From a phage: DNA of 64,000 nucleotides. Below are positions 1,884-46,546 of this stretch, in pieces (the first letter of the stretch is position 1; each line of letters opens with the position of its first letter). The stretch lies in sequence record PV730299.1. One strand, given 5' to 3'. Both the position numbers and the translations under genes were made by a program. The notes beneath the pieces were generated by a model. The model was not told the DNA's origin. It saw nothing but the letters and a program-made list of their open reading frames with translations, and did not search any database.

Positions 1884-2225
1884 ATGAAACTCAATAAGAT
1901 TCTTCTGGTGTGCGCTCTGGCTTTCTCTACCACTGCGTGTTCCACCCTTCTGGACGTTGCTTCTACTGTAGACCTTGACGCGCCGACGTTCACCAATGAG
2001 CAGGCCGTGTCCAAGATGGAAGACACCATCAAGGCGCATGCAGCACTGGACAACACTACCCCAGGTCCGCTCCAAACTGTCTGCAACTATGACGATTCCA
2101 TCCAGGAAGACGAAACTTACCACTGCATCACCTACGTGAAGCAGGCCTCCGTCGTTCTGTATGCAGATTGTACCGAAGAACAGTGTGTTGCTACAGGCTA
2201 CGATAAAGTTGAGGAAGACAAATGA
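1884..2225 (+). CDS. putative lipoprotein / secreted small protein
   Basis: ATG at 1884 with AGGTGA 6 nt upstream (the track's 1875 start is GTG); N-terminal signal-like hydrophobic segment LLVCALAFSTTAC ending in Cys. Confidence 0.45.
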   Translation: MKLNKILLVCALAFSTTACSTLLDVASTVDLDAPTFTNEQAVSKMEDTIKAHAALDNTTPGPLQTVCNYDDSIQEDETYHCITYVKQASVVLYADCTEEQCVATGYDKVEEDK

Positions 2226-3001
2226 ACAACCTGGTTTGTATCTATGATATGAAATCAAAGGTCGGTGGCCTGTATCGCGTCCTCGTGGATGTTGACCTGA
2301 CGTTGGTCGACAGCCTCTCCCCTTGGGTGCAGTGGTTTAACGAAGAGAACATCGCCGCCGCTGCTATCGCTACGGGGGAACATAAGTCATACCAGTTCCA
2401 GCCGATTACCAAAGAGTGTTATATGTCCCATGCTGGCGACCTGGCTATTCTGATGCGTGAACGTGCGCATCCGGCGTGGCTATACCATGAAGTCCAATTG
2501 GGGATGCACAAACAACGTGTGCCAAGCGGTAACGATCCTATGGACTGGTGGCGTCGCCCTGACTTGTACGCCAAGATGAACCCACTTCCTGGTGCTTACG
2601 AGTTCCTGGTGAATCTGAAGAAGATTCTGCTCGAAGACTTTGACAATGTTGAATTCATCGCGGTGTCGAAGTGCGAGCCGGAACACGAGCGCAGCAAGCG
2701 TCAGTTTGTCTATGATAAGTTCCCTGGTATCTTCAACGGGTTTGTCAGCACCGACGAAAAGCATCTGCTGGCTGGCGATGTCCTGATTGATGACAATCCG
2801 AAGTATGTCGAGCCATGCGGTCTGAACAACATCTTTGTCATCTTTGTTCCTCAGGGCAATTATGAAAAACTGGATCTTTCGAATTCGGAAGACATGCTTT
2901 ATATTAAACCAGTAGAAGGCCAGAATCACTTCGACTTCCTGAACCGCAATATTGTTGAAGTGGTTAACCGCCTGATTAGTCATTATCAATACGTCCGATA
3001 G
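2222..3001 (+). CDS. HAD-superfamily phosphatase, 5'(3')-deoxyribonucleotidase-like
   Basis: HAD motif I-like VDVDLTLVD near the N-terminus and a C-terminal LIDDNP motif typical of the NT5C nucleotidase family; ATGA overlap with the upstream gene. Confidence 0.45.
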   Translation: MNNLVCIYDMKSKVGGLYRVLVDVDLTLVDSLSPWVQWFNEENIAAAAIATGEHKSYQFQPITKECYMSHAGDLAILMRERAHPAWLYHEVQLGMHKQRVPSGNDPMDWWRRPDLYAKMNPLPGAYEFLVNLKKILLEDFDNVEFIAVSKCEPEHERSKRQFVYDKFPGIFNGFVSTDEKHLLAGDVLIDDNPKYVEPCGLNNIFVIFVPQGNYEKLDLSNSEDMLYIKPVEGQNHFDFLNRNIVEVVNRLISHYQYVR

Positions 3002-3010
3002 GAGGACATC

Positions 3011-3316
3011 GTGCAAGAACAATCCAAGTTTGGGGAAACCCCAGACAAGCGTTCCGGTGATAGCGACATGGATAGCGTGATTAACCATGTGAACAACTTC
3101 ATTCGTCAGCAGGAGACTCCAACTCCTATCGGTGCAGCCAAGGCTCTTCATGATGTACTGGTGAAGATCGGCCAGCGCTCTGAAGCGGATGAAATCTTCT
3201 ATAACTTTGAAGACCAGTATAAAGTGAAGTTTGAAGAAAACGGTCGTCCGCAGGTTGCTGTGTTCTGGGCACCTTGGCTGGGCGGCGTGAGCTGGCGTAT
3301 TGAGGATGCTGTGTAA
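3011..3316 (+). CDS. hypothetical protein
   Basis: GTG start preceded by AGGAGG at 2999-3004; stop overlaps the next start (ATGCTG). Confidence 0.5.
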   Translation: MQEQSKFGETPDKRSGDSDMDSVINHVNNFIRQQETPTPIGAAKALHDVLVKIGQRSEADEIFYNFEDQYKVKFEENGRPQVAVFWAPWLGGVSWRIEDAV

Positions 3317-4002
3317 TGCTGTCGCTCTACCTGATCACGAATCTCGTCAATCATAAATTCTATATCGGTGTCACCTCAGAACCGGATAGGCGGTTGGCTG
3401 AGCATAAGTGTGGTCAGGGGAGCATTGCATTACAACGAGCGTTCAAGAAATACGGTGAAGACCAGTTCAAGTTTGAAGTTCTGTTCCGAGGGAAAGATTC
3501 GGTTATCCTTGAGATAGAGTCTGAACTGGTCTGCCAGGAGATCCTTGACTCTGGGTGGTGCTACAACATGGTCGTCGGGGGTGGGAAGCCTCCATTGGCC
3601 ACGCCAGAGTCATCCGCAAAGAGCGCCGCAACCCGCAAACGTTTGATCGCTGAAGGTAAGATTAAACCTCCACCAAGACTCACCCCTGAAGCACAAGCCA
3701 GAAAGGGTAAGATCATAAGCAAATTGATGTCAGAAGGGAAGATCCCCAAACCACCAAGACCTTCCTCTGAATCTCAAACGCGTGGAGGGGGAACTAGGAA
3801 GAGGCTGCATGCTCTTGGTCTGATAGACATTGGTCCTGGTCGCGATGAAAAGATTTACAAATGGCAGCACAAAGATGGTCGCATCGTTGAGTTAAGAAGA
3901 TGCGACATGGAACTTCAATATGGCCTCCCTTCCGGTAATATAACGAATCTCTTGAAAGGTAGGGCTAAAACATGTCTCGGTTGGAGAATATTAAATGGCT
4001 AA
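3316..4002 (+). CDS. GIY-YIG homing endonuclease
   Basis: N-terminal LYLITNLVNHKFYIGVT (GIY...YIG signature) followed by two basic repeats GKIKPPPRLTPEAQARKGK / GKIPKPPRPSSESQTRGGG resembling NUMOD-type DNA-binding repeats. Confidence 0.75.
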   Translation: MLSLYLITNLVNHKFYIGVTSEPDRRLAEHKCGQGSIALQRAFKKYGEDQFKFEVLFRGKDSVILEIESELVCQEILDSGWCYNMVVGGGKPPLATPESSAKSAATRKRLIAEGKIKPPPRLTPEAQARKGKIISKLMSEGKIPKPPRPSSESQTRGGGTRKRLHALGLIDIGPGRDEKIYKWQHKDGRIVELRRCDMELQYGLPSGNITNLLKGRAKTCLGWRILNG

Positions 4003-4912
4003 AATAATTGTAGTGAAAGGCACCTCGGCCACGGGCAAGGGTACGAGAGTGGTCCAGTTCATCGAATGGCTGCGCACTAAGCTGGAGCCTACCGAACTGA
4101 CCTACACCGTTGGTGACAAGACTCGCCCGTTTGGCCTGAAGTTCGGAGAGCTGAAGTTAATCTTCGTTGGGCAGTACACCGTGTCTAACAAATCCGGTCT
4201 GGCTTCCTGGACTTCAATGGATGCAATCCATGCTGCTACAGGCTCAGGCGATATTGCTCGTGATCTAATCAAGTGCTGGTTGGTTCAGGGATACACTCTG
4301 GTGTGTGAGGGCGAACCTCTCATGCTATCGGACAAATGGCGTCCTGAATGGATGTTCAAGAACTATCCGATTGAATCATTGGCGCTGCTGTACTTTGCGT
4401 ACCCCGACCGCTATCAGTACGATGCTCGTATCCGTGGTCGATCTGGTAAAGAAGCAGGGAACTCCGGCTGGTCGCGCAACGAATCTTACTACAAGGAGTT
4501 TGAGAAGTCGAAGGCCGAAATGCTGGCGCTGGGCTTCACTGTGGCTGTTGATGATTACAGCGGACAGGATATCCTGTATAAATCACCGGATGCCAACACC
4601 AAGGAGTTCACAACCAAACAGCAGTCTGAGTTGGCGGTACTACCGTTCGACGCCCCGCTGTGGGTTGTGGGTAATGCGATTTGTCATCAGATCCGCTCTG
4701 AACTGCGTGGTGTTGACATGCACACCAAAGACTTCTACGCCTACTGTGAAACCAATCCGATGACTCGTGAAATCGGCGGCCAGGATCCTTTGGCGCACAG
4801 AGTCCCTGAGAAGCCGCAGAAGGCATCCAAAACTAAAACCAAGGCGAGCGCCCAGCCAGAAGCACCGAAGGCAGCGTCGCGCTCTCTCCTTGACCTGATG
4901 AAGAAGGGGTGA
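3995..4912 (+). CDS. P-loop NTPase, kinase-like; function unassigned
   Basis: Walker A-like GTSATGKGT at residues 9-17 and a Walker B-like LVCEGE; 305 aa. No match recognised to T4 Pnk, Tk or gp1. Confidence 0.5.
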   Translation: MAKIIVVKGTSATGKGTRVVQFIEWLRTKLEPTELTYTVGDKTRPFGLKFGELKLIFVGQYTVSNKSGLASWTSMDAIHAATGSGDIARDLIKCWLVQGYTLVCEGEPLMLSDKWRPEWMFKNYPIESLALLYFAYPDRYQYDARIRGRSGKEAGNSGWSRNESYYKEFEKSKAEMLALGFTVAVDDYSGQDILYKSPDANTKEFTTKQQSELAVLPFDAPLWVVGNAICHQIRSELRGVDMHTKDFYAYCETNPMTREIGGQDPLAHRVPEKPQKASKTKTKASAQPEAPKAASRSLLDLMKKG

Positions 4913-5489: not shown

Positions 5490-5655
5490 TTTTATCTTCA
5501 TGATGTTGATGTTCGTTATCTTTACGGTTTCGCTGGTCGGCGTCATGGTCACAGAAGGAGTGCAACAGCGCCCATTCTTGGTGATATGTCCTGTATCTAT
5601 CGCCACTTTCTTCTATCTGGCGTTCCGTGTTGAACTCGGGAGTAAAATCGGATGA
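5470..5655 (+). CDS. small membrane protein
   Basis: 61 aa with two predicted transmembrane segments; overlaps the downstream start by 4 nt. Confidence 0.4.
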   Translation: MKIKQVDFIFMMLMFVIFTVSLVGVMVTEGVQQRPFLVICPVSIATFFYLAFRVELGSKIG

Positions 5656-6887
5656 CACATCTGTCTAAAATGCCGCAGGGATATAAAGCCCCTGAAAAAT
5701 GGAAATACCCGATTGATCTGGCAATAGATTATCGTAAGCCAGAAAATCGCATGTACCTACTCAAGGCTTGGGTGGAGGCGCTGTCCTACACCGAAGAGCA
5801 CAACCAGCAGATGCGTCTGATGGACTATGCGATCGAAGTCACTGAAGGTATCAGCCTCGAACAGAAAGTCGAGCGCAAGATCTGGATGGCATTCCTGTGG
5901 GGTTGTTGCTATAACGCCGTCGGGCCGTGGACGATCTACAGTGAGTTCCCTGTACCACCCCAGTCCAAAGAAGGGATGCAGCGCTTCTCTGATTGGTATA
6001 ATCTGAACTTTGATCGCATGCGATTCGATACCGACTGTCGCTACCGCAAGTCCAAGATGATTCCGTGTGTTCAGTCCTATATTGACTGGCTGGCTGGCCG
6101 TACTCAATATGACGCTTTCCGTGGGATGTTGGTGTGCATCGATAAGACAGAACAATTCACCCAGCTGTGGGACACGGCGATGTCCTGGAAATACTTCGGT
6201 CGCCTGAGCGCCTGGAACTTCCTGGAAGCCCTGAACATGGTCTTCGGGAACGAATACACCATTGACGTCCCTGGCTTCATGCTGCGTGATCGTGATGGAA
6301 GCGAGTCCAACCGTAATGGCGCGGCGTTCTTGTCCAACCGTGACGATTGGGTGACTAAACACGGGAAGAAAAAGATCAACGGTTGTCCTATCACGGATGA
6401 AGAGTGTGACATCCTTGAGGCCGACCTTGAGCAGGCGTTCCAGGATTGTGTGGCTGAGTTCGGGCACCTGACGTTCATCAACCGCCTGAACTTTGAAACC
6501 TCCGGCGCTTGTTGGCTGAAGAAATTCTTCCGACTGAAGAATACCCGTTACATCGGGTGGGACGCAGAGCGTACCTGGGATGAGATAGACTACATGGAAC
6601 GCGTCTGGCCTGAATACTCCTGCGCAGAGCTCTGGGAAGCCCGTTCGCTCTGGCTGCCAGATACCCTGTTATGTGAAAAGGCTCCTGCAGGGCACGTTCC
6701 AGGCGTCCAGAAGTGGAAGATGCCTGTATTCTTTGAGACTGGTGTTCCTCTGCATATCTGGCACCTGCAAAAGGGTACGCGCTGGGAACCATCCGAGGTA
6801 TGTACGAACCTGAAGATGCCTGTGCGCAAGGTTGAGGACAAGTCGAAGTCCAGCAGCGTCAACCTCATGGCACTCTTGAAACGCTGA
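5652..6887 (+). CDS. hypothetical protein (411 aa), function unassigned
   Basis: Long uninterrupted ORF, translationally coupled to the upstream gene; no motif recognised. Confidence 0.65.
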   Translation: MTHLSKMPQGYKAPEKWKYPIDLAIDYRKPENRMYLLKAWVEALSYTEEHNQQMRLMDYAIEVTEGISLEQKVERKIWMAFLWGCCYNAVGPWTIYSEFPVPPQSKEGMQRFSDWYNLNFDRMRFDTDCRYRKSKMIPCVQSYIDWLAGRTQYDAFRGMLVCIDKTEQFTQLWDTAMSWKYFGRLSAWNFLEALNMVFGNEYTIDVPGFMLRDRDGSESNRNGAAFLSNRDDWVTKHGKKKINGCPITDEECDILEADLEQAFQDCVAEFGHLTFINRLNFETSGACWLKKFFRLKNTRYIGWDAERTWDEIDYMERVWPEYSCAELWEARSLWLPDTLLCEKAPAGHVPGVQKWKMPVFFETGVPLHIWHLQKGTRWEPSEVCTNLKMPVRKVEDKSKSSSVNLMALLKR

Positions 6888-28015: not shown

Positions 28016-28330
28016 ATGACCCCATTAAAAGAAATGTATGAGCGTCTGGCTGAACTACAGGCGAAGGAAAAGCGCTTCTCAGAAGAAGAGTCTGAAATTG
28101 CCGAGCTGAACAACCTGATCGCCACTCGTGAGAAGTACCTGCAGCGCTACATTAATCACCCGCCGCGCATGGTAGACCGCGTCAGCACTATCATGGACCT
28201 GGATGAAGTTACTCCTGGCAAAGAAATCATTGTCAGGGAAGTCCACCAGATGGTCGCCATGGGTCAGATCTTTGGTCGTGCAGACCAAGACGACATGATC
28301 TTCCTCCTTGAAAAGAAACTGGTGATGTGA
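28016..28330 (+). CDS. hypothetical protein
   Basis: AGAGGA upstream; coiled-coil-like N-terminus. Confidence 0.5.
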   Translation: MTPLKEMYERLAELQAKEKRFSEEESEIAELNNLIATREKYLQRYINHPPRMVDRVSTIMDLDEVTPGKEIIVREVHQMVAMGQIFGRADQDDMIFLLEKKLVM

Positions 28331-28836
28331 TGGCTATCAAACCCCGTATGTTATTTGCGCATATGCGCTCGGCTCATGCATACGCTCTGTCCAGCTATGC
28401 CCAGCGCCTGAAGGTCGGCTGTGTTATCGTTGACCCGCGTGTTGACCAGCCCCTGTCTATCGGTTGGAACGGGACTGCTCCTGGCGCTCCTAATGTCTGT
28501 GAGAAGGAAGTAGACGGTCAACTGGTATCGGTGGGTGTTATCCACGCCGAGGAGAATGCTCTGAGCAAACTCCCCCAGCACACCGAAGACTGTTGTGGTC
28601 TGGTGATGTTTGTCACTCATAGTCCATGCCCAGAGTGCACCCGTCGTATTATCGACAGTGGCAAGATCGCTAAAGTGTTCTATGACCGACCATATCGTAT
28701 CATAGACGGCATTATTGAAATGCTGGCTGCTGGGATTGAAGTATATCGCATGGTCGATCAGATTGTTGTAGTCCAGCATTCTGTGAAGAACGGCGAACTG
28801 GTATCCACCCCTGTTTTAGTGAACCCTGACAAATAA
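28330..28836 (+). CDS. cd: dCMP deaminase (CMP/dCMP deaminase zinc-binding family)
   Basis: Zinc-binding motifs HAEENAL (H-A-E) and SPCPECTRRI (PC..C); ATG 28330 overlaps the upstream stop. Confidence 0.8.
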   Translation: MAIKPRMLFAHMRSAHAYALSSYAQRLKVGCVIVDPRVDQPLSIGWNGTAPGAPNVCEKEVDGQLVSVGVIHAEENALSKLPQHTEDCCGLVMFVTHSPCPECTRRIIDSGKIAKVFYDRPYRIIDGIIEMLAAGIEVYRMVDQIVVVQHSVKNGELVSTPVLVNPDK

Positions 28837-41729: not shown

Positions 41730-42059
41730 CTACCCCACCAAAAATTTATTATATTCCTGAGCATTACGCTGCATGATGTCTACAAGGATATCCCCTGACA
41801 CCTCAGTGAACAAGTCATTTTCTTTCAAATTCACAAACATCAGACGCAATGGTTTCTTCAATATATCAGTCACGAAAGACAGGCGGGGTTCGCCGTCCAC
41901 TTCGTTGATGGCCACCTTGCCGAACCGGAATTGAACACCACGGAATTTGCCAGAAGTGATCTTGATGATCGCCAGCTGATCAGCACCAGGGTCGATGATT
42001 GTGTAGTTATTGGGGGAGTCTCCTCCCCCTCCACTGTTATTCGCTTGTGTTGATAACAT
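41730..42059 (-). CDS. hypothetical protein (occupies the T4 gene-40 position)
   Basis: Start set at the internal ATG with GGAG about 8 nt upstream to limit overlap with uvsX; contains a Gly run SGGGGDSP. Confidence 0.4.
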   Translation of the reverse strand: MLSTQANNSGGGGDSPNNYTIIDPGADQLAIIKITSGKFRGVQFRFGKVAINEVDGEPRLSFVTDILKKPLRLMFVNLKENDLFTEVSGDILVDIMQRNAQEYNKFLVG

Positions 42060-43122
42060 GGTCCATTTGCTCCAGCATGTTAGCAGGCATAACAGTACCG
42101 TTAGAAACACCGAACATTTTCTTCACGTCATCGGCGAAGTTGACATTCTCCAGCAGCGGATACCAGAAATCATCACCCATCTGACGCTTCTGATATTTCT
42201 TTTCCTTCTCAGGATCGAAACCACCCTTGGCTGTACGCACATACCAGCCGGAAGACGGCATATCAACATAACCCAGAGCACGAGCGATCTCAAGCAGGCC
42301 GCTCCAGCGATCAATACCACCGTTGTACAGTACCGTCACAGGGAGCTTGGCTTTCTCTTTGACATGGCGACCTTTCATGATGCTTATGTTGAAGTTCCAG
42401 CCCAGCAGATCTTTGTCTTCCTTCACCTGAGAACGGGTGATAAACCAGATCAAGTTGGAGGATAAGAAGCCCTGTTTGCCACCTTTGATGTTAGGCTCGG
42501 CATATTGGTTGCCGATCTCATCGTAATAAGAGTTGATCCAAACACACACGAGATTTTTGCTGTTGATTTCGGGAGTCATGACACGCCAGAAGCTGTTAAG
42601 GGCACGGGCGCGGGTCATGTCCTGAGTGTCGTTCCCTTTGATCGCATCTTCAACTTCCTTGGTGGAGGGAAGTTGGCTGATAGAGTCGATGAAGATTATA
42701 ACATGGTCGCCTTTCTTGACTTCCTGTAGGATCTGCAGCAAGCGGATCTTGGTCTGTTCAACGTTGTCGATCGGTACGTACAGGACGCGGTCCATGTCAA
42801 TGCCCATAGAGGTCCAGTAATCGGCGTTGGCACCCTTTTCTGAGTCCGCAAAGACGCAGATAGCATCAGGGAACTTGTCCATGTACGCCTTGACGTCTAC
42901 CAGACCGAACATCGTTTTGAAGGTACGGGAATCACCCACCATCATCTTGATACCGGAGATCAGACCGCCGTCAATACGCCCAGACCATGCGATATCGATC
43001 AGGGGAATACCAGTAGAACAGATGATAGACGGTTCCAGAGCGTCGGATTTGGACAGCACTGAAGCCTGGTCATCGTGTTTCTTAGCAACCTTCAGCATGC
43101 GGTCCATTAATGAACTGGCCAT
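42037..43122 (-). CDS. uvsX: UvsX recombinase (RecA/Rad51 family)
   Basis: IPLIDIAWSGRIDGGLISGIKMMVGDSRTFKTMFGLVDVKAYMDKFPDAICVFADSE aligns from memory to T4 UvsX (IPMMNIALSGEITGG...GPSKSFKSNFGL...YPDAVCLFYDSE). Confidence 0.85.
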   Translation of the reverse strand: MASSLMDRMLKVAKKHDDQASVLSKSDALEPSIICSTGIPLIDIAWSGRIDGGLISGIKMMVGDSRTFKTMFGLVDVKAYMDKFPDAICVFADSEKGANADYWTSMGIDMDRVLYVPIDNVEQTKIRLLQILQEVKKGDHVIIFIDSISQLPSTKEVEDAIKGNDTQDMTRARALNSFWRVMTPEINSKNLVCVWINSYYDEIGNQYAEPNIKGGKQGFLSSNLIWFITRSQVKEDKDLLGWNFNISIMKGRHVKEKAKLPVTVLYNGGIDRWSGLLEIARALGYVDMPSSGWYVRTAKGGFDPEKEKKYQKRQMGDDFWYPLLENVNFADDVKKMFGVSNGTVMPANMLEQMDHVINTSE

Positions 43123-43649
43123 TTCACTTCCTCTTTATTGTTGATCGTCGTTAATAATTCTACACCCATAACCTTCTGGGACAAAATGTTAACCGCCTCT
43201 TGGATGCTCTTCAGGGACATTGTCTCAACAAGCGACGATGCGTCATTATGCCGGTCGGTTAGGTACATATTGCGCAGATTGTTGTAGTTCGTGCGGTTGA
43301 TGCACGCAGTGTTCAGTGCTATATTCAGGATATACATCATCTGTTCAATGGTTACATCCTTTGGCATAGCGTGGATGTAATAGATCGAGCCTTCAAAATA
43401 GACGTCTACCAGTTCATCTGGTATCTTGATGCCACCACCGGCATACTCTTCGATCATCCTGAACAGAGACTCTGGTTGCTCGCTGGCGATTTTATGCGTA
43501 ACAGTCGCCGAAAGACCGTCGCCCGGTTTAACAGGCCTGTTGTATTCAGTAAGGAATACATTATGTCCGCCGCCGATGATGTGCTCGGCGAATTTGGAAG
43601 ATGCCTGAGCAGCGTTCTCCGCATGGTATGAAACGACGACTGTAAACAT
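43107..43649 (-). CDS. hypothetical protein
   Basis: 180-aa ORF coupled to uvsX and the upstream gene. Confidence 0.45.
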   Translation of the reverse strand: MFTVVVSYHAENAAQASSKFAEHIIGGGHNVFLTEYNRPVKPGDGLSATVTHKIASEQPESLFRMIEEYAGGGIKIPDELVDVYFEGSIYYIHAMPKDVTIEQMMYILNIALNTACINRTNYNNLRNMYLTDRHNDASSLVETMSLKSIQEAVNILSQKVMGVELLTTINNKEEVKWPVH

Positions 43650-44203
43650 TAGAACTCCAGGGTCAGAGGGGTTTCTGCGGACTTATCGTAATCCGCGCCA
43701 CCAGCAGCACGCAGGCGATTGCGATCGTTCTTGCGTTTGTGTGCCAGTATGTAAGTCTCGATGTCGATCTCCATATAAGAACACGCAGACGACAGGAAGA
43801 ACATGAGAGTCTCAACGCAAGGATCGTTCATGAATTGCCCAAGGCGGTACGTAACATTGCGATGCCCTACAACACCCAAAGCAGATGGGGTGAATTCGCG
43901 ATTACTAAGGACTTCAAATTCTTCTTCGATCTCACCTTTGGTGCGGTCCACAAGGATGAAGCACAACATGAAGTGTACCACGTCCACCAGTTCATAAACT
44001 GCGTTCGTATGGTCAAACCCGATGTCGTTGCCATAGACCTTCCAGTCACGGGTGGTTTCATCAAGGAACTCTGCCCACTCACGATAGATAGAGTTGATGA
44101 CTGCGTTCTGACTCCATACATTCTTCCACTCTTCCCCAAAGTAGGCCACGTTAGTGGCCTTTTGGAGTTCGAGCAGGCTTTTGATATGCCCTGCTGTGAT
44201 CAT
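43649..44203 (-). CDS. all-alpha NTP pyrophosphatase (dUTPase/dCTPase-like), putative
   Basis: Acidic helical motifs WAEFLDETTRDW and YELVDVVHF; sits within the nucleotide-metabolism cluster. Confidence 0.35.
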   Translation of the reverse strand: MITAGHIKSLLELQKATNVAYFGEEWKNVWSQNAVINSIYREWAEFLDETTRDWKVYGNDIGFDHTNAVYELVDVVHFMLCFILVDRTKGEIEEEFEVLSNREFTPSALGVVGHRNVTYRLGQFMNDPCVETLMFFLSSACSYMEIDIETYILAHKRKNDRNRLRAAGGADYDKSAETPLTLEF

Positions 44204-44769
44204 TTACGTTCTCCGTAGAATTTAACGAACGGCTCCCAACCATCAAATGGATTGAGGAATTCGTAGTCCACTTTCATTTGGTCAATGAAAGCCTCTATAT
44301 CGTCCTCTATGATACCAGCACGGTCGGCCTTTGAAATACGGGTGATAGGACATTTCGTACTCAGCGCCCATTCATATTCCTGAGGGGTACGCAGATCGCT
44401 CACGATATAATGGACGTGGGGGTTCTGCTCTACCAGAGGAAGCTGGAAGCGCTTGAAGAATGCCAGGAACAGATCGGGTTGTACGTAACGCAAGCCCGTA
44501 TCGCTGCCTAGATGAAGCCAGATCTGCCGTGGAGTTAAGCCCTTGGGGTTATCAGGGTGCACGTAAGGAACGTCCTTCACGGCATCCTCTACCTCCGCTG
44601 GGAGCCATGGGTAGATGTAGTTGGCTACACGGCGCAGTTCATCCGAGAACGAAAGGCGCTGGATGTCCATATCACCCTGTAAGTGGTGATAACTGATCAG
44701 GGACTCCAAACAGAAGTCCTTACCGGAGCGCTTGCGCCCCGTAAAGAATTCAAGATTTGGATACATCAT
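44200..44769 (-). CDS. 1: deoxynucleoside monophosphate kinase (T4 gp1-like)
   Basis: N-terminal P-loop FTGRKRSGKDF resembling the T4 gp1 GVKRSGKDT loop; 189 aa. Confidence 0.6.
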   Translation of the reverse strand: MMYPNLEFFTGRKRSGKDFCLESLISYHHLQGDMDIQRLSFSDELRRVANYIYPWLPAEVEDAVKDVPYVHPDNPKGLTPRQIWLHLGSDTGLRYVQPDLFLAFFKRFQLPLVEQNPHVHYIVSDLRTPQEYEWALSTKCPITRISKADRAGIIEDDIEAFIDQMKVDYEFLNPFDGWEPFVKFYGERK

Positions 44770-45812
44770 ACTACACCTTCCAGGAACTTAGGATCAATGA
44801 TCTTGCGGTCAACCGGGGAATGGGTGAGCGCGGTGTTCAAGCCATGATCCTGAATCAGGTCCAGGTTAATGAGCTTTTCGTTCAGTTTGCAGTGCAGACA
44901 GTACGCCATCTGTACAATCAGGCCGCGATCCGCATCGTATTCCTTCAGGTGAGCAACCACAGTTTCCCACGGGCTACCGATATCACAGTGATGAAGCACA
45001 CCAGTGAACAGATTGCGGATATGGTTCTGGTTGGTCACGTTCGTGAAGTGAATCATGGAGTTGATGAACCCAGCTTCTACTTTGGTGTCCTTCGTGATCT
45101 TGCCCAGCTGCTTCTGGCTGACTTCATTGTTGTAGTAATGAAGATTGTTAGAGAATAGCTTGTACTGACCGACATCAACACCCAGCACCCGAGCAATCAC
45201 TTCCTGAAGAATAGAGAACTCAATGAAGTTAATTGAACTCATCCCCCACAGAACATCCTGTGAGCGATTGATGACCGTCAGGTTCAGACGACCTTCAACG
45301 ATGGCGAATAACAGAGCCAGGTTACACACCATGTCCTTGGTCTTCGCTTCGCCGCTCTCGCTGAACTTCGCCAGACCAGCATCCGAATCTAGAGCCGGGT
45401 CATAGATGGTGAGGTACGCCTGGCGAGTGTTTGGGTTCTTACGCAGGCGGTTGATAACGCTATCCAGCTGGTCATGGGCGTACAGACGCGGACCATAAGC
45501 AGCTCGCCATGTTACCCCATCATCCGAAAAGTTAGCAGCGCGAGGCAATACGCGTGACAGGAACTTTATGTCGTTGCGGCCTGACAACACCCAGAAGGTC
45601 TCGCCGATGGCAGCGATAGCCGATGAGTTGCGACCTTCAACGGAGAGCCAGCGGTCACGGATGTCGGCGACGGTTATGGTCACGCCATCAAGGAAGCGGG
45701 TGCTATCAGTATTGATTTCAGCATTACCAGGATCAGATTCGATCCCGAATTCACGGATAGCCAAGACAGCCTGCTTCAGCATGTCATTGTTGTTAATTGC
45801 TTTGATTTCCAT
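44766..45812 (-). CDS. thymidylate synthase family enzyme (ThyA or dUMP hydroxymethylase-type; not a dCMP hydroxymethylase)
   Basis: Catalytic block VCNLALLFAIVEGRLNLTVINRSQDVLWGMSSINFIEF aligns to the ThyA C...QFYV...YQRSxDVFLGLPFN region, with Asn (not Asp) at the pyrimidine-specificity position; HYYNN as in ThyA H.Y.N; 348 aa with a C-terminal extension. Confidence 0.75.
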   Translation of the reverse strand: MEIKAINNNDMLKQAVLAIREFGIESDPGNAEINTDSTRFLDGVTITVADIRDRWLSVEGRNSSAIAAIGETFWVLSGRNDIKFLSRVLPRAANFSDDGVTWRAAYGPRLYAHDQLDSVINRLRKNPNTRQAYLTIYDPALDSDAGLAKFSESGEAKTKDMVCNLALLFAIVEGRLNLTVINRSQDVLWGMSSINFIEFSILQEVIARVLGVDVGQYKLFSNNLHYYNNEVSQKQLGKITKDTKVEAGFINSMIHFTNVTNQNHIRNLFTGVLHHCDIGSPWETVVAHLKEYDADRGLIVQMAYCLHCKLNEKLINLDLIQDHGLNTALTHSPVDRKIIDPKFLEGVV

Positions 45813-46471
45813 CAGATACTCCCAAAATCACGACAGAGGAATGCCATCACAGCCTGGTCTACTGTTAGGCCGTGAGACTTCATCATACCCGCAGCCACCG
45901 TAGGGAACAAGCCTTTATGTCGTTGACGATGGTCATGAACTCTCTCCCACTTCTCGACCACCAGACTTTCATTGAAGTCCACACCACCGTTACGTGATTT
46001 AACGCGGGAGATACACGTTTCAAGGGGAGTGTCCATAAAGAGCACAACCAATTCACGTGGTGGGCGTGTCAGACGGGGGATCCAAGAACTCAATAATGTG
46101 GATGGAATGATACCTTCGAAAATCACATCATATTTCAAGTATTCTGGTTGGTCAGCAATAGACAACGCGAACAACATCTGCTCAGTGTCCTTCAGGGAAT
46201 CAACCCCCTTGGACTTCGACTTGTCATATTTACCGATACAGACCACGTTGAACGAAGGACAGACAGTCAGCATGACCTTGCCGTTATGGGTCACGACATA
46301 CGCCTGAGGATCCCTCTCCGCCAGCTGAGACGGCACAGTGGATTTACCGCTACCATTGGAGCCTTTGACGTAGTAGATTTGCCCTCGTGCTGGGTAGATC
46401 CCCTTTACGACGGGTGGTTTAAAGAATGTGTGGACGGGGCGCTTCATCAGCCCCTTCAGGGAGTAGGACAT
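45812..46471 (-). CDS. P-loop kinase, function unassigned
   Basis: Walker A GSNGSGKST; 219 aa; translationally coupled (shared base) to the thymidylate-synthase-family gene. Confidence 0.55.
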   Translation of the reverse strand: MSYSLKGLMKRPVHTFFKPPVVKGIYPARGQIYYVKGSNGSGKSTVPSQLAERDPQAYVVTHNGKVMLTVCPSFNVVCIGKYDKSKSKGVDSLKDTEQMLFALSIADQPEYLKYDVIFEGIIPSTLLSSWIPRLTRPPRELVVLFMDTPLETCISRVKSRNGGVDFNESLVVEKWERVHDHRQRHKGLFPTVAAGMMKSHGLTVDQAVMAFLCRDFGSI

Positions 46472-46546
46472 AAACTGCTCCGATAAACAAAAGGAGCTGC
46501 TATTATAGCAGCCCCTTCATCTATTGAACAGTTTCTGAACTTAAAT

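Follow-up and report, generated by a model that had tools for sequence, protein, structure and literature searches.

The main finding of this study is that two overlapping genes in the 64,000-nucleotide stretch of phage DNA analyzed here (sequence record PV730299.1, hereafter the window) very probably encode the entry steps of a pathway for thymidine hypermodification of the ViI type. The window comes from an Agtrevirus-like member of the Ackermannviridae (subfamily Aglimvirinae) and is 98.7% identical to Escherichia phage LHE287. The pairing of a dUMP hydroxymethylase with a 5-hydroxymethyl-dU (5-hmdU) DNA kinase (5-HMUDK) in ViI-like phages is already known, having been published in 2018 and 2021, and the value of our analysis for the window is corrective rather than novel. 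In the public records of near-identical phages, the labels given to the two products are "thymidylate synthase," "terminase small subunit," and "hypothetical protein," with a shortened form without the P-loop entered as "putative kinase." Their sequences call for the names dUMP hydroxymethylase and 5-hmdU DNA kinase instead.

Gene layout at the locus

The block formed by the kinase and the thymidylate synthase (TS) homologue is 98.7% identical to that of Escherichia phage LHE287 and ~91% identical to that of Shigella phage Ag3, and it is common to 270 phage records, which indicates conservation beyond chance. As originally predicted, the two open reading frames, both on the minus strand (Table 1), overlap by one base: their junction reads ATC TGATG GAA, so that the TGA stop of the kinase and the ATG start of the TS homologue have base 45812 in common. 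They open a run of overlapping, translationally coupled genes, in which ATGA overlaps join the stop of the hydroxymethylase gene to the start of the dNMP kinase gene and the latter to the dUTPase-like gene, which is itself translationally coupled to the ACT-like gene through TAATG. The position of the TS homologue beside 5-HMUDK is not constant among more distant homologues. In Ralstonia phage RP13 and in one metagenomic contig, the TS homologue adjoins a DNA polymerase, a dCTP deaminase, a YfbR-like nucleotidase, and an AAA_28 kinase, so the adjacency is a feature of the lineage and not a rule.

Table 1. Predicted features in the window considered for the proposed hypermodification module
Feature	Coordinates	Strand	Evidence
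5-hmdU DNA kinase (5-HMUDK), ViI gp67 orthologue, 219 aa	45812..46471	-	PF18748, E 4e-109
dUMP hydroxymethylase, TS fold with MilA-like C-terminal helical domain, 348 aa	44766..45812	-	PF00303, alignments, AF2, Foldseek
Key residues of the hydroxymethylase: Glu71, Tyr106, Arg130, Asp160, Cys163, Arg183, Ser184, Asp186, Asn195, His225, Tyr227			
dNMP kinase (T4 gp1-like)	44200..44769	-	phrog_139, E 1e-47; 91% identity to ViI dnk
All-alpha dimeric dUTPase/MazG-like NTP pyrophosphohydrolase	43649..44203	-	PF08761 dUTPase_2, E 6e-9; phrog_173, E 3e-40
Phage ACT-like domain protein	43107..43649	-	PF24021 ACT_phage, E 1e-78
Terminator-like hairpin	46490..46518	-	Scan; alignment with ViI and ZQ1
dCMP deaminase	28327..28836	+	PF00383, E 4e-16; 64% identity to ViI dCMP deaminase
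Second 5-hmdU DNA kinase (HMUD2), ViI gp243 orthologue	3995..4912	+	PF18747, E 8.5e-158; 84% identity
Amino acid:DNA transferase (aGPT-Pplase clade 2), ViI gp247 orthologue	5652..6887	+	PF18724 ADDT, E 6.5e-60
NT5C-type 5'-deoxypyrimidine nucleotidase	2222..3001	+	PF06941 NT5C, E 1.6e-8

Directly upstream of the kinase start lies a hairpin whose stem has 13 pairs and whose loop contains TATAAT; a T-run and a GGAG Shine-Dalgarno sequence come after it. In an alignment with ViI and ZQ1, ~50 nt at this hairpin are identical between the window phage and ViI, and a search of the whole window found no further copies. A scan for sigma-70 promoters between positions 42000 and 47600 returned sites no more numerous than in shuffled sequence, and no promoter was therefore assigned.

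The P-loop kinase

The kinase had been described as unassigned in the original prediction, which proved incorrect: a dedicated Pfam family exists. PF18748 (HMUDK_HMUD1) covers residues 14-208 of the protein, which correspond to profile positions 1-195 of 196, i.e., its full length, with a score of 363 bits for a gathering cut-off of 27. The protein is 89% identical over 219 aa to gp67 of phage ViI (YP_004327432), with an intact Walker A motif (GSNGSGKST, residues 37-45) that is identical in the two proteins. This motif is present only with the 219-aa start; the record of phage ZQ1 annotates a 174-aa start. Since in vitro assays of ViI gp67, as of gp243, showed phosphorylation of 5-hmdU in DNA (PMC8989533), orthology points to the 219-aa protein being a 5-hmdU DNA kinase. 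It is distinct, as had been proposed, from the dNMP kinase, which is encoded by a separate T4 gp1-like gene. Lee 2018 lists a close relative of the window phage, PhiSboM-AG3, as well as SKML-39, among 5-HMUDK phages and reports that 5-HMUDK co-occurs with a dUMP hydroxymethyltransferase (PMC5889632). The genomic context expected of a 5-HMUDK is found here as well, with an adjacent TS homologue, an ADDT (PF18724) transferase elsewhere in the window, and an HMUDK_hel (PF18723) protein in LHE287. Sequence comparison with solved structures returned only marginal P-loop matches (best E 0.009), which leaves the kinase without a structural homologue by sequence, and neither of the two kinases nor the transferase is covered by an NCBIfam model.

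The thymidylate synthase homologue

The 348-aa protein matches PF00303 in its core only (residues 67-235, profile positions 54-219 of 266; E 5e-17), and the ~110 residues that follow, which make it longer than ThyA as originally noted, are without TS counterpart. The ThyA catalytic Cys block and specificity Asn seen previously are both confirmed by alignment. Cys163 is the catalytic residue, aligned to Cys146 of E. coli ThyA, while Asn195 at the specificity position is aligned to Asn177 of E. coli ThyA and to Asp179 of the T4 dCMP hydroxymethylase, which supports a uracil nucleotide, and not dCMP, as the probable substrate. None of Asp160, Cys163, and Asn195 varies among 41 homologues, and Glu71 and Tyr106, the equivalents of Glu58 and Tyr94, are likewise invariant. 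With E. coli ThyA the protein shares the fold, covalent catalysis, and equivalents of Glu58, Tyr94, Arg126, Cys146, Arg166, Ser167, Asp169, Asn177, His207, and Tyr209. However, Leu143 is replaced by Asp160 and Arg127 by Gln, there is no Trp in segment 86-100 that could be equivalent to Trp80/Trp83, the phosphate-binding Arg21 has no clear counterpart in the alignment, and the C-terminal tail that seals the folate site is missing, with a MilA-matching helical domain (residues 262-336) in its place. In ThyA, Leu143, Trp80/Trp83, and the tail make up a hydrophobic shield for hydride transfer; the window protein lacks it and falls outside the bona fide ThyA cluster. It scored below the cut-off of every NCBIfam ThyA model (best 63.7 bits for a cut-off of 327), TIGR03284 scored 44 for a cut-off of 108, and blastp placed SPO1 gp29 (120 bits, 35% identity over 204 aa) closer than E. 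coli ThyA (58 bits, 22%).

The published signature of hydroxymethylation is an acidic residue, three positions ahead of the catalytic Cys, that activates water (PMC6400193). Asp160 occupies this Cys-3 position (KDMVC), and Asp is also found there in SPO1 gp29 (KDRPC), ZC01, T4 gp42 (Asp145), and MilA. The second half of the T4 signature, Ser/Thr-x-Tyr (Ser94-x-Tyr96 in gp42), is absent from the TS homologue, which has Ala104-Ala105-Tyr106. It is also absent from SPO1 gp29, a bona fide dUMP hydroxymethylase from a Bacillus phage (Ala-Pro-Tyr), and from ZC01 (Gly-Ala-Tyr), so the motif looks specific to dCMP hydroxymethylases. SPO1 gp29 further resembles the window protein in having a TS fold with the Cys, Glu, Tyr, and Asn residues, an FSDDG motif, and a Pfam TS match that stops at the same place (about residue 231) and is followed by a long C-terminal extension. 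The main differences are that gp29 has 383 aa, that the C-terminal domains are hardly alignable in sequence, and that in SPO1, which has no 5-HMUDK, 5-hmdU is the final base. T4 gp42 likewise replaces hydride transfer by hydration and lacks the ThyA C-terminal tail, but it is only 16% identical, has the cytosine-specific Asp179, and consists of 246 aa without a C-terminal domain.

Structure prediction points in the same direction. The AF2 model of the 348-aa protein (pLDDT 93.8) matched TS-fold structures with a Foldseek probability of 1.00. Its top match was MilA, the CMP 5-hydroxymethylase of Streptomyces (PDB 5jnh, 5b6d), over the full length (351 columns, TM 0.71), including the C-terminal helical domain that is missing in ThyA and T4 gp42, whereas ThyA structures matched in the core only (TM 0.50-0.57). 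MilA was also the best sequence match (E 1e-18). It differs in substrate. Its specificity residue is an Asp, and ribose is served by Lys133/Ala176; the phage counterparts are Asn195, Arg130, and Ser184, of which the last two correspond to the deoxynucleotide-preferring K133R/A176S state of MilA. Among long homologues (470-590 aa), Pfam detects the TS core only, with no fusion to a known domain. On the strength of sequence and predicted structure, we read the TS homologue as a dUMP hydroxymethylase and not as ThyA, although we infer the activity of the Ackermannviridae enzyme, as the ViI literature does.

Proposed pathway and alternative readings

The closest known system is that of Salmonella phage ViI (Kuttervirus), in which gp67 and Vi01_060c belong to the 5-(2-aminoethoxy)methyl-dU (5-NeOmdU) pathway (PMC5889632, PMC8989533). 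Gene order and the one-base stop/start overlap are the same in the two phages, with the dNMP kinase, dUTPase-like, and ACT genes downstream in both, and orthologues of gp243, gp247, gp226, and gp160 are 84-92% identical. ViI differs in subfamily (Cvivirinae versus Aglimvirinae) and in host, and its TS homologue is 77% identical to ours, the C-terminal ~110 residues being the most diverged. By homology, the window or near-identical genomes also contain the remaining ViI pathway genes. The window transferase is 88% identical over 411 aa to ViI gp247, for which serine transfer was shown in vitro, as was decarboxylation for gp226 (PMC8989533). The gene for the PLP decarboxylase lies outside the window, and its LHE287 orthologue is 92% identical to gp226; LHE287 also has a gp160 orthologue (87%). 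The dUTPase-like gene and the dCMP deaminase that had been proposed to feed the pathway are both there. The former, whose product is 61% identical to Vi01_058c of ViI, is a candidate dUTPase, possibly also a dTTPase, supplying dUMP, which the dCMP deaminase would supply as well. Membership of the ACT-like protein in the pathway is uncertain. The NT5C nucleotidase possibly takes part in dTMPase-like pool editing, the encoding of a dTMPase having been described for hmU phages (PMC8989533). A 2026 study rebuilt a thymine hypermodification in E. coli with this same set of genes: dUMP HMase, dTTPase/dUTPase, dCMP deaminase, 5-HMUDK, and Pplase2 (PMC13458397).

In the pathway that we propose, the steps before replication follow from homology. 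The dCMP deaminase and the dUTPase-like enzyme would raise dUMP, and Cys163 of the TS-fold enzyme would then attack C6 of dUMP, which would receive a one-carbon unit from methylene-tetrahydrofolate. Instead of hydride reduction, water activated by Asp160 would be added to the exocyclic methylene, giving 5-hydroxymethyl-dUMP and tetrahydrofolate. The dNMP kinase is predicted to convert 5-hmdUMP into 5-hmdUDP and, with the host NDP kinase, to lead to 5-hmdUTP, which the phage DNA polymerase would incorporate. For the steps after replication, the ViI orthologues are active in vitro. The 219-aa kinase would use ATP to phosphorylate 5-hmdU in DNA to 5-phosphomethyl-dU, a reaction that the second kinase would also carry out, the transferase would allow the serine side-chain oxygen to displace the phosphate, and the PLP enzyme would decarboxylate the serine adduct to 5-(2-aminoethoxy)methyl-dU.

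Could the public annotations be correct after all, i.e., could the 348-aa protein be a thymidylate synthase making dTMP and the P-loop protein a conventional nucleotide kinase or a small terminase subunit? The labels recur across GenBank/RefSeq relatives and in PHROG 3676 and PHROG 800, the 348-aa protein does match PF00303, and canonical thymidine is the majority in ViI DNA. We nevertheless consider this highly improbable and already largely refuted through the published assay of gp67, a demonstrated 5-hmdU-in-DNA phosphorylator (PMC8989533) to which the kinase is so similar; the kinase is thus no ordinary nucleotide kinase, and ViI has a separate small terminase beside its large terminase. 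For the 348-aa protein, every ThyA equivalog model fell far under its cut-off, the exchange of Leu143 for Asp and the loss of the Trp80/Trp83 equivalent and of the C-terminal tail do not fit ThyA, and the best structural match is MilA. That match in turn raises the question of whether the TS-fold enzyme might hydroxymethylate dCMP, like T4 gp42, or a ribonucleotide, like MilA, so that the module would yield a modified cytosine or a nucleoside metabolite, since the CMP hydroxymethylase tops the PDB matches in both sequence and structure. To this we give almost no credence: the specificity residue is a clade-invariant Asn195, where T4 gp42 and MilA have Asp, Arg130 and Ser184 match the state that favors deoxynucleotides, the nearest characterized sequence is the dUMP hydroxymethylase SPO1 gp29, and the modified base of relatives is a thymidine derivative (PMC5889632). 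The pairing of a TS-homologue dUMP hydroxymethylase with a 5-hmdU DNA kinase put forward in the original prediction is upheld by the PF18748 match, the similarity to gp67, and the Asp160/Asn195 residues.

A different question is whether the first two steps are as proposed but the final base in Agtrevirus differs from that of ViI, for example, O-serinyl-thymidine or a conjugate of another amino acid. The published nucleoside analyses that we found cover ViI, CBA120, CBA6, and 1.255.O (PMC5889632) and no Agtrevirus, making the modified base of the window lineage a prediction, and few residue changes in Pplase2 can switch its ligand (PMC13458397). This is quite unlikely, however, considering the identity of the transferase and of the PLP decarboxylase to the ViI enzymes, the 301-Da nucleoside that is common to ViI-like phages as far apart as 1.255.O (PMC5889632), and the family-wide conservation of the modification genes according to a review. 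In ViI, ~40% of thymidines are replaced by 5-NeOmdU and ~60% are unmodified (PMC5889632). The MilA-like C-terminal helical domain, together with the Ala-Ala-Tyr that replaces Ser-x-Tyr, prompts the speculation, which we regard as very unlikely, that the enzyme might partition its methylene intermediate between hydration and reduction, yielding both 5-hmdUMP and dTMP, or that this domain might dock the coupled kinases for channelling. If true, partitioning or channelling could help explain why just ~40% of thymidines are hypermodified.

As for the gene pair as the entry to a ViI-type pathway, its significance lies in what the ViI base and module confer: DNA that is resistant to many restriction enzymes. 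Such resistance matters for Ackermannviridae phages that are candidates for phage therapy and for the handling of their DNA in the laboratory.

Setting of the gene pair

The pair of genes analysed here, encoding a P-loop kinase and a homologue of thymidylate synthase (TS), lies in the T4-like replication region of these phages, surrounded by gp41 helicase, UvsX, gp32 and gp2. The 3-kb gene block, carried by 270 phage records, shows 98.7% identity with Escherichia phage LHE287, 98.6% with vB_EcoM-ZQ1 (Ackermannviridae, Aglimvirinae) and ~91% with both Shigella phage Ag3 and Salmonella phage SKML-39. Both ORFs lie on the minus strand precisely where the original prediction placed them, and the one-base overlap that it noted is present: at the junction, ATC TGATG GAA, base 45812 belongs both to the TGA stop of the kinase and to the ATG that starts the TS homologue. 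The overlaps of the TS homologue with the dNMP kinase gene, and of the latter with the dUTPase-like gene, both read ATGA, while TAATG joins the dUTPase-like gene to an ACT-like gene that overlaps uvsX by 16 nt. Between the kinase start (46471) and the stop of the upstream gene (46547), ~50 nt (TTCAATAGATGAAGGGGCTGCTATAATAGCAGCTCCTTTTGTTTAT) are 100% identical to Salmonella phage ViI, versus 77-89% protein identity for the flanking genes. This stretch occurs once in the window. In it, a 13-pair hairpin with TATAAT in its loop precedes a T-run and a GGAG ribosome-binding site; the element may act as a terminator, as a processing site or as a promoter-stem-loop cassette.

Coordinates of pathway genes and neighbouring features in the window. 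The first two rows are from the ORF list; genes with a ViI identity were located by tblastn with ViI proteins.
Feature	Position	Strand	Length	Identity to ViI	Pfam
Kinase	45812..46471	-	219 aa		
TS homologue	44766..45812	-	348 aa		
gp243 (second kinase)	3995-4912			84%	PF18747
gp247 (serine:DNA transferase)	5652-6887			88%	PF18724
dCMP deaminase	28327-28836			64%	PF00383
dNMP kinase	44200-44769			91%	none above cut-off
dUTPase-like	43649-44203			61%	PF08761
NT5C-type protein	2222-3001	+	259 aa		PF06941 (E 1.6e-8)
GIY-YIG ORF	3316-4002	+	228 aa		PF01541 (E 6e-8)
ACT-like protein	43107-43649	-			PF24021 (E 1e-78)
Conserved intergenic stretch	46476-46528	-			

The TS homologue as a predicted dUMP hydroxymethylase

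By blastp, the TS homologue scores 120 bits (35% identity) with SPO1 gp29, a classical dUMP hydroxymethylase, versus 58 bits (22%) with E. coli ThyA, and all seven NCBIfam ThyA equivalog models fall far under their cut-offs (best 63.7 versus 327). Its closest phage relatives outside Ackermannviridae (33-39% identity) are in YuA-group Pseudomonas phages and Ralstonia phage phiRSL1, with those of ZC01 and phiRSL1 annotated as deoxyuridylate hydroxymethyltransferase. The Pfam TS match is confined to the core (residues 67-235, profile positions 54-219 of 266). We aligned the protein with its ViI orthologue, Pseudomonas phage ZC01 (M6/PaMx11-type), SPO1 gp29, T4 gp42 and E. coli ThyA (sequence identical to PDB 1aob_A); the original prediction had called for the comparison with SPO1 and ThyA. 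The residues for covalent catalysis are complete (Glu71, Tyr106, Arg130, Cys163, Arg183, Ser184, Asp186, His225 and Tyr227), and the anticipated Asn at the pyrimidine-specificity position is Asn195, equivalent to E. coli Asn177; the T4 gp42 residue at this site, Asp179, specifies cytosine. Three positions ahead of the nucleophilic Cys lies Asp160 (KDMVC), an Asp shared with SPO1 gp29 (KDRPC), ZC01 (KDFPC), T4 gp42 (SDFMC) and the CMP hydroxymethylase MilA (IDVAC), whereas E. coli ThyA has Leu143 (LAPC). An alignment of 41 database homologues shows no variation at Asp160, Cys163 or Asn195. In T4 gp42, this Asp activates the substrate water, D145N being inactive, and it has been proposed as a signature dividing hydroxymethylases from TS (Park et al., PMC6400193). 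The segment equivalent to ThyA Trp80/Trp83 has no tryptophan but holds the motif FSDDG, found also in SPO1 gp29 and ZC01, and the ThyA C-terminal tail is absent. Nor is the second half of the T4 signature, Ser/Thr-x-Tyr, retained; since it is also missing in SPO1 gp29, we regard this motif as probably specific to dCMP hydroxymethylases.

A confident AlphaFold2 model (41-sequence alignment, pLDDT 93.8, pTM 0.93) places a helical domain, residues ~262-336, in the predicted C-terminal extension beyond ThyA. Foldseek against the PDB ranks MilA first over 351 columns (TM 0.71, E 5e-20), whereas ThyA structures cover only the core (TM 0.50-0.57), so that the extension is not an unknown appendage but the extra domain of long hydroxymethylases. 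The preference of MilA for CMP stems from Lys133 and Ala176 and is shifted to dCMP in a K133R/A176S double mutant (PMC6400193). The TS homologue has Arg130 and Ser184 at these positions, consistent with a deoxynucleotide substrate. From sequence and model, we infer that it makes 5-hmdUMP; the literature consulted on the pathway contained no enzyme assay of an Ackermannviridae TS homologue.

Many metagenomic relatives, including P0047, P0053, P0065 and P0072, are 470-590 aa long, and Pfam sees only their N-terminal TS core, to ~residue 230, which leaves some 250-350 C-terminal residues without domain assignment. On metagenomic contig SRR18147687_7126 (locus L012, 5348-9645), a distant 385-aa homologue sits in a different module with dCTP deaminase, a YfbR-like 5'-deoxynucleotidase, an AAA_28 kinase and a 398-aa unknown protein; the gene set, which borders a helicase and an intein-containing DNA polymerase A, resembles a further nucleotide-pool module of the hmdU type.

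The kinase and the remaining pathway

The prediction that the P-loop protein is a 5-hmdU DNA kinase (5-HMUDK) was borne out by profile search. The protein, with Walker A GSNGSGKST at residues 37-45, matches PF18748 ('5-hmdU DNA kinase') over nearly the entire profile (363 bits, E 4e-109) and is 89% identical, gap-free, to ViI YP_004327432, 'gp67' in the literature, whose gene has the same position and likewise overlaps the start of the ViI TS homologue by one base. ViI gp67 uses ATP to phosphorylate 5-hmdU in DNA, yielding 5-phosphomethyl-dU, an activity shared by gp243, M6 gp54, PhiW-14 gp37 and SP10 gp186 (Lee et al., PMC8989533). ViI-like phages encoding 5-HMUDK include PhiSboM-AG3 and SKML-39, and the enzyme co-occurs with a TS-superfamily dUMP hydroxymethyltransferase (Lee 2018, PMC5889632); given this co-occurrence and the orthology to gp67, the predicted pairing is the published one. 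The family is labelled 'terminase small subunit' in RefSeq (including ViI Vi01_061c) and PHROG 800, a label that is in error; in ViI, the small terminase is a distinct gene next to that of the large one. In the ZQ1 record (MW650886, locus L001, 21813-22337), the kinase CDS begins at the GTG of Val46 (174 aa), so that the P-loop is lost from the annotated protein.

The dNMP kinase is, as anticipated, encoded separately just downstream, and the expected dUTPase-like and dCMP deaminase genes are also in the window. Two further ViI proteins, the PLP decarboxylase gp226 and gp160, have counterparts in LHE287 (92% and 87% identity, respectively) whose genes fall outside the window. Sequence and structure suggest that the dUTPase-like enzyme and dCMP deaminase would supply dUMP to the TS homologue, that the dNMP kinase would act on the resulting 5-hmdUMP, and that this Agtrevirus-like phage would end with the same base as ViI, 5-(2-aminoethoxy)methyl-dU (5-NeOmdU). 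With the ViI orthologues, the kinase step, serine transfer and decarboxylation to 5-NeOmdU have all been shown in vitro (PMC8989533), and in virion DNA of ViI, CBA120, CBA6 and 1.255.O, ~40% of T is replaced, the remaining 60% of thymidines being unmodified (PMC5889632). In a 2026 study, dUMP HMase, dTTPase/dUTPase, dCMP deaminase, 5-HMUDK and Pplase2, the same functions as here, were combined in E. coli to reconstitute a related thymine hypermodification (PMC13458397). The modification genes are conserved throughout Ackermannviridae (review, PMC11721090).

Several neighbouring genes merit mention. Between DNA polymerase and the second kinase, a gene called 'hypothetical' in relatives encodes an NT5C-type 5'-deoxypyrimidine nucleotidase domain and could edit the nucleotide pool in the manner of the dTMPase described for hmU phages. 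Directly upstream of the second kinase, and overlapping its start, is a GIY-YIG homing-endonuclease-like ORF; the otherwise 98.7% identical LHE287 has no gene at this position. The phage ACT-like domain protein, whose gene is coupled in translation to those of nucleotide metabolism, may regulate the module by sensing small molecules. Outside the window, the closest relative, LHE287 (locus L007, 25391-27906), carries NAMPT and ribose-phosphate pyrophosphokinase genes, the variable NAD+-salvage pair of Agtrevirus phages (review, PMC11721090).

Implications

The gene pair is confirmed and its interpretation as a thymidine hypermodification module is supported, none of the outcomes that the original prediction had named as counting against it having been found. 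The system is already known: it was described in 2018 and 2021, has dedicated Pfam families and was reported in phages some of which are closely related to the present one. What the present analysis contributes is a correction of annotation and a residue-level case for the hydroxymethylase assignment.
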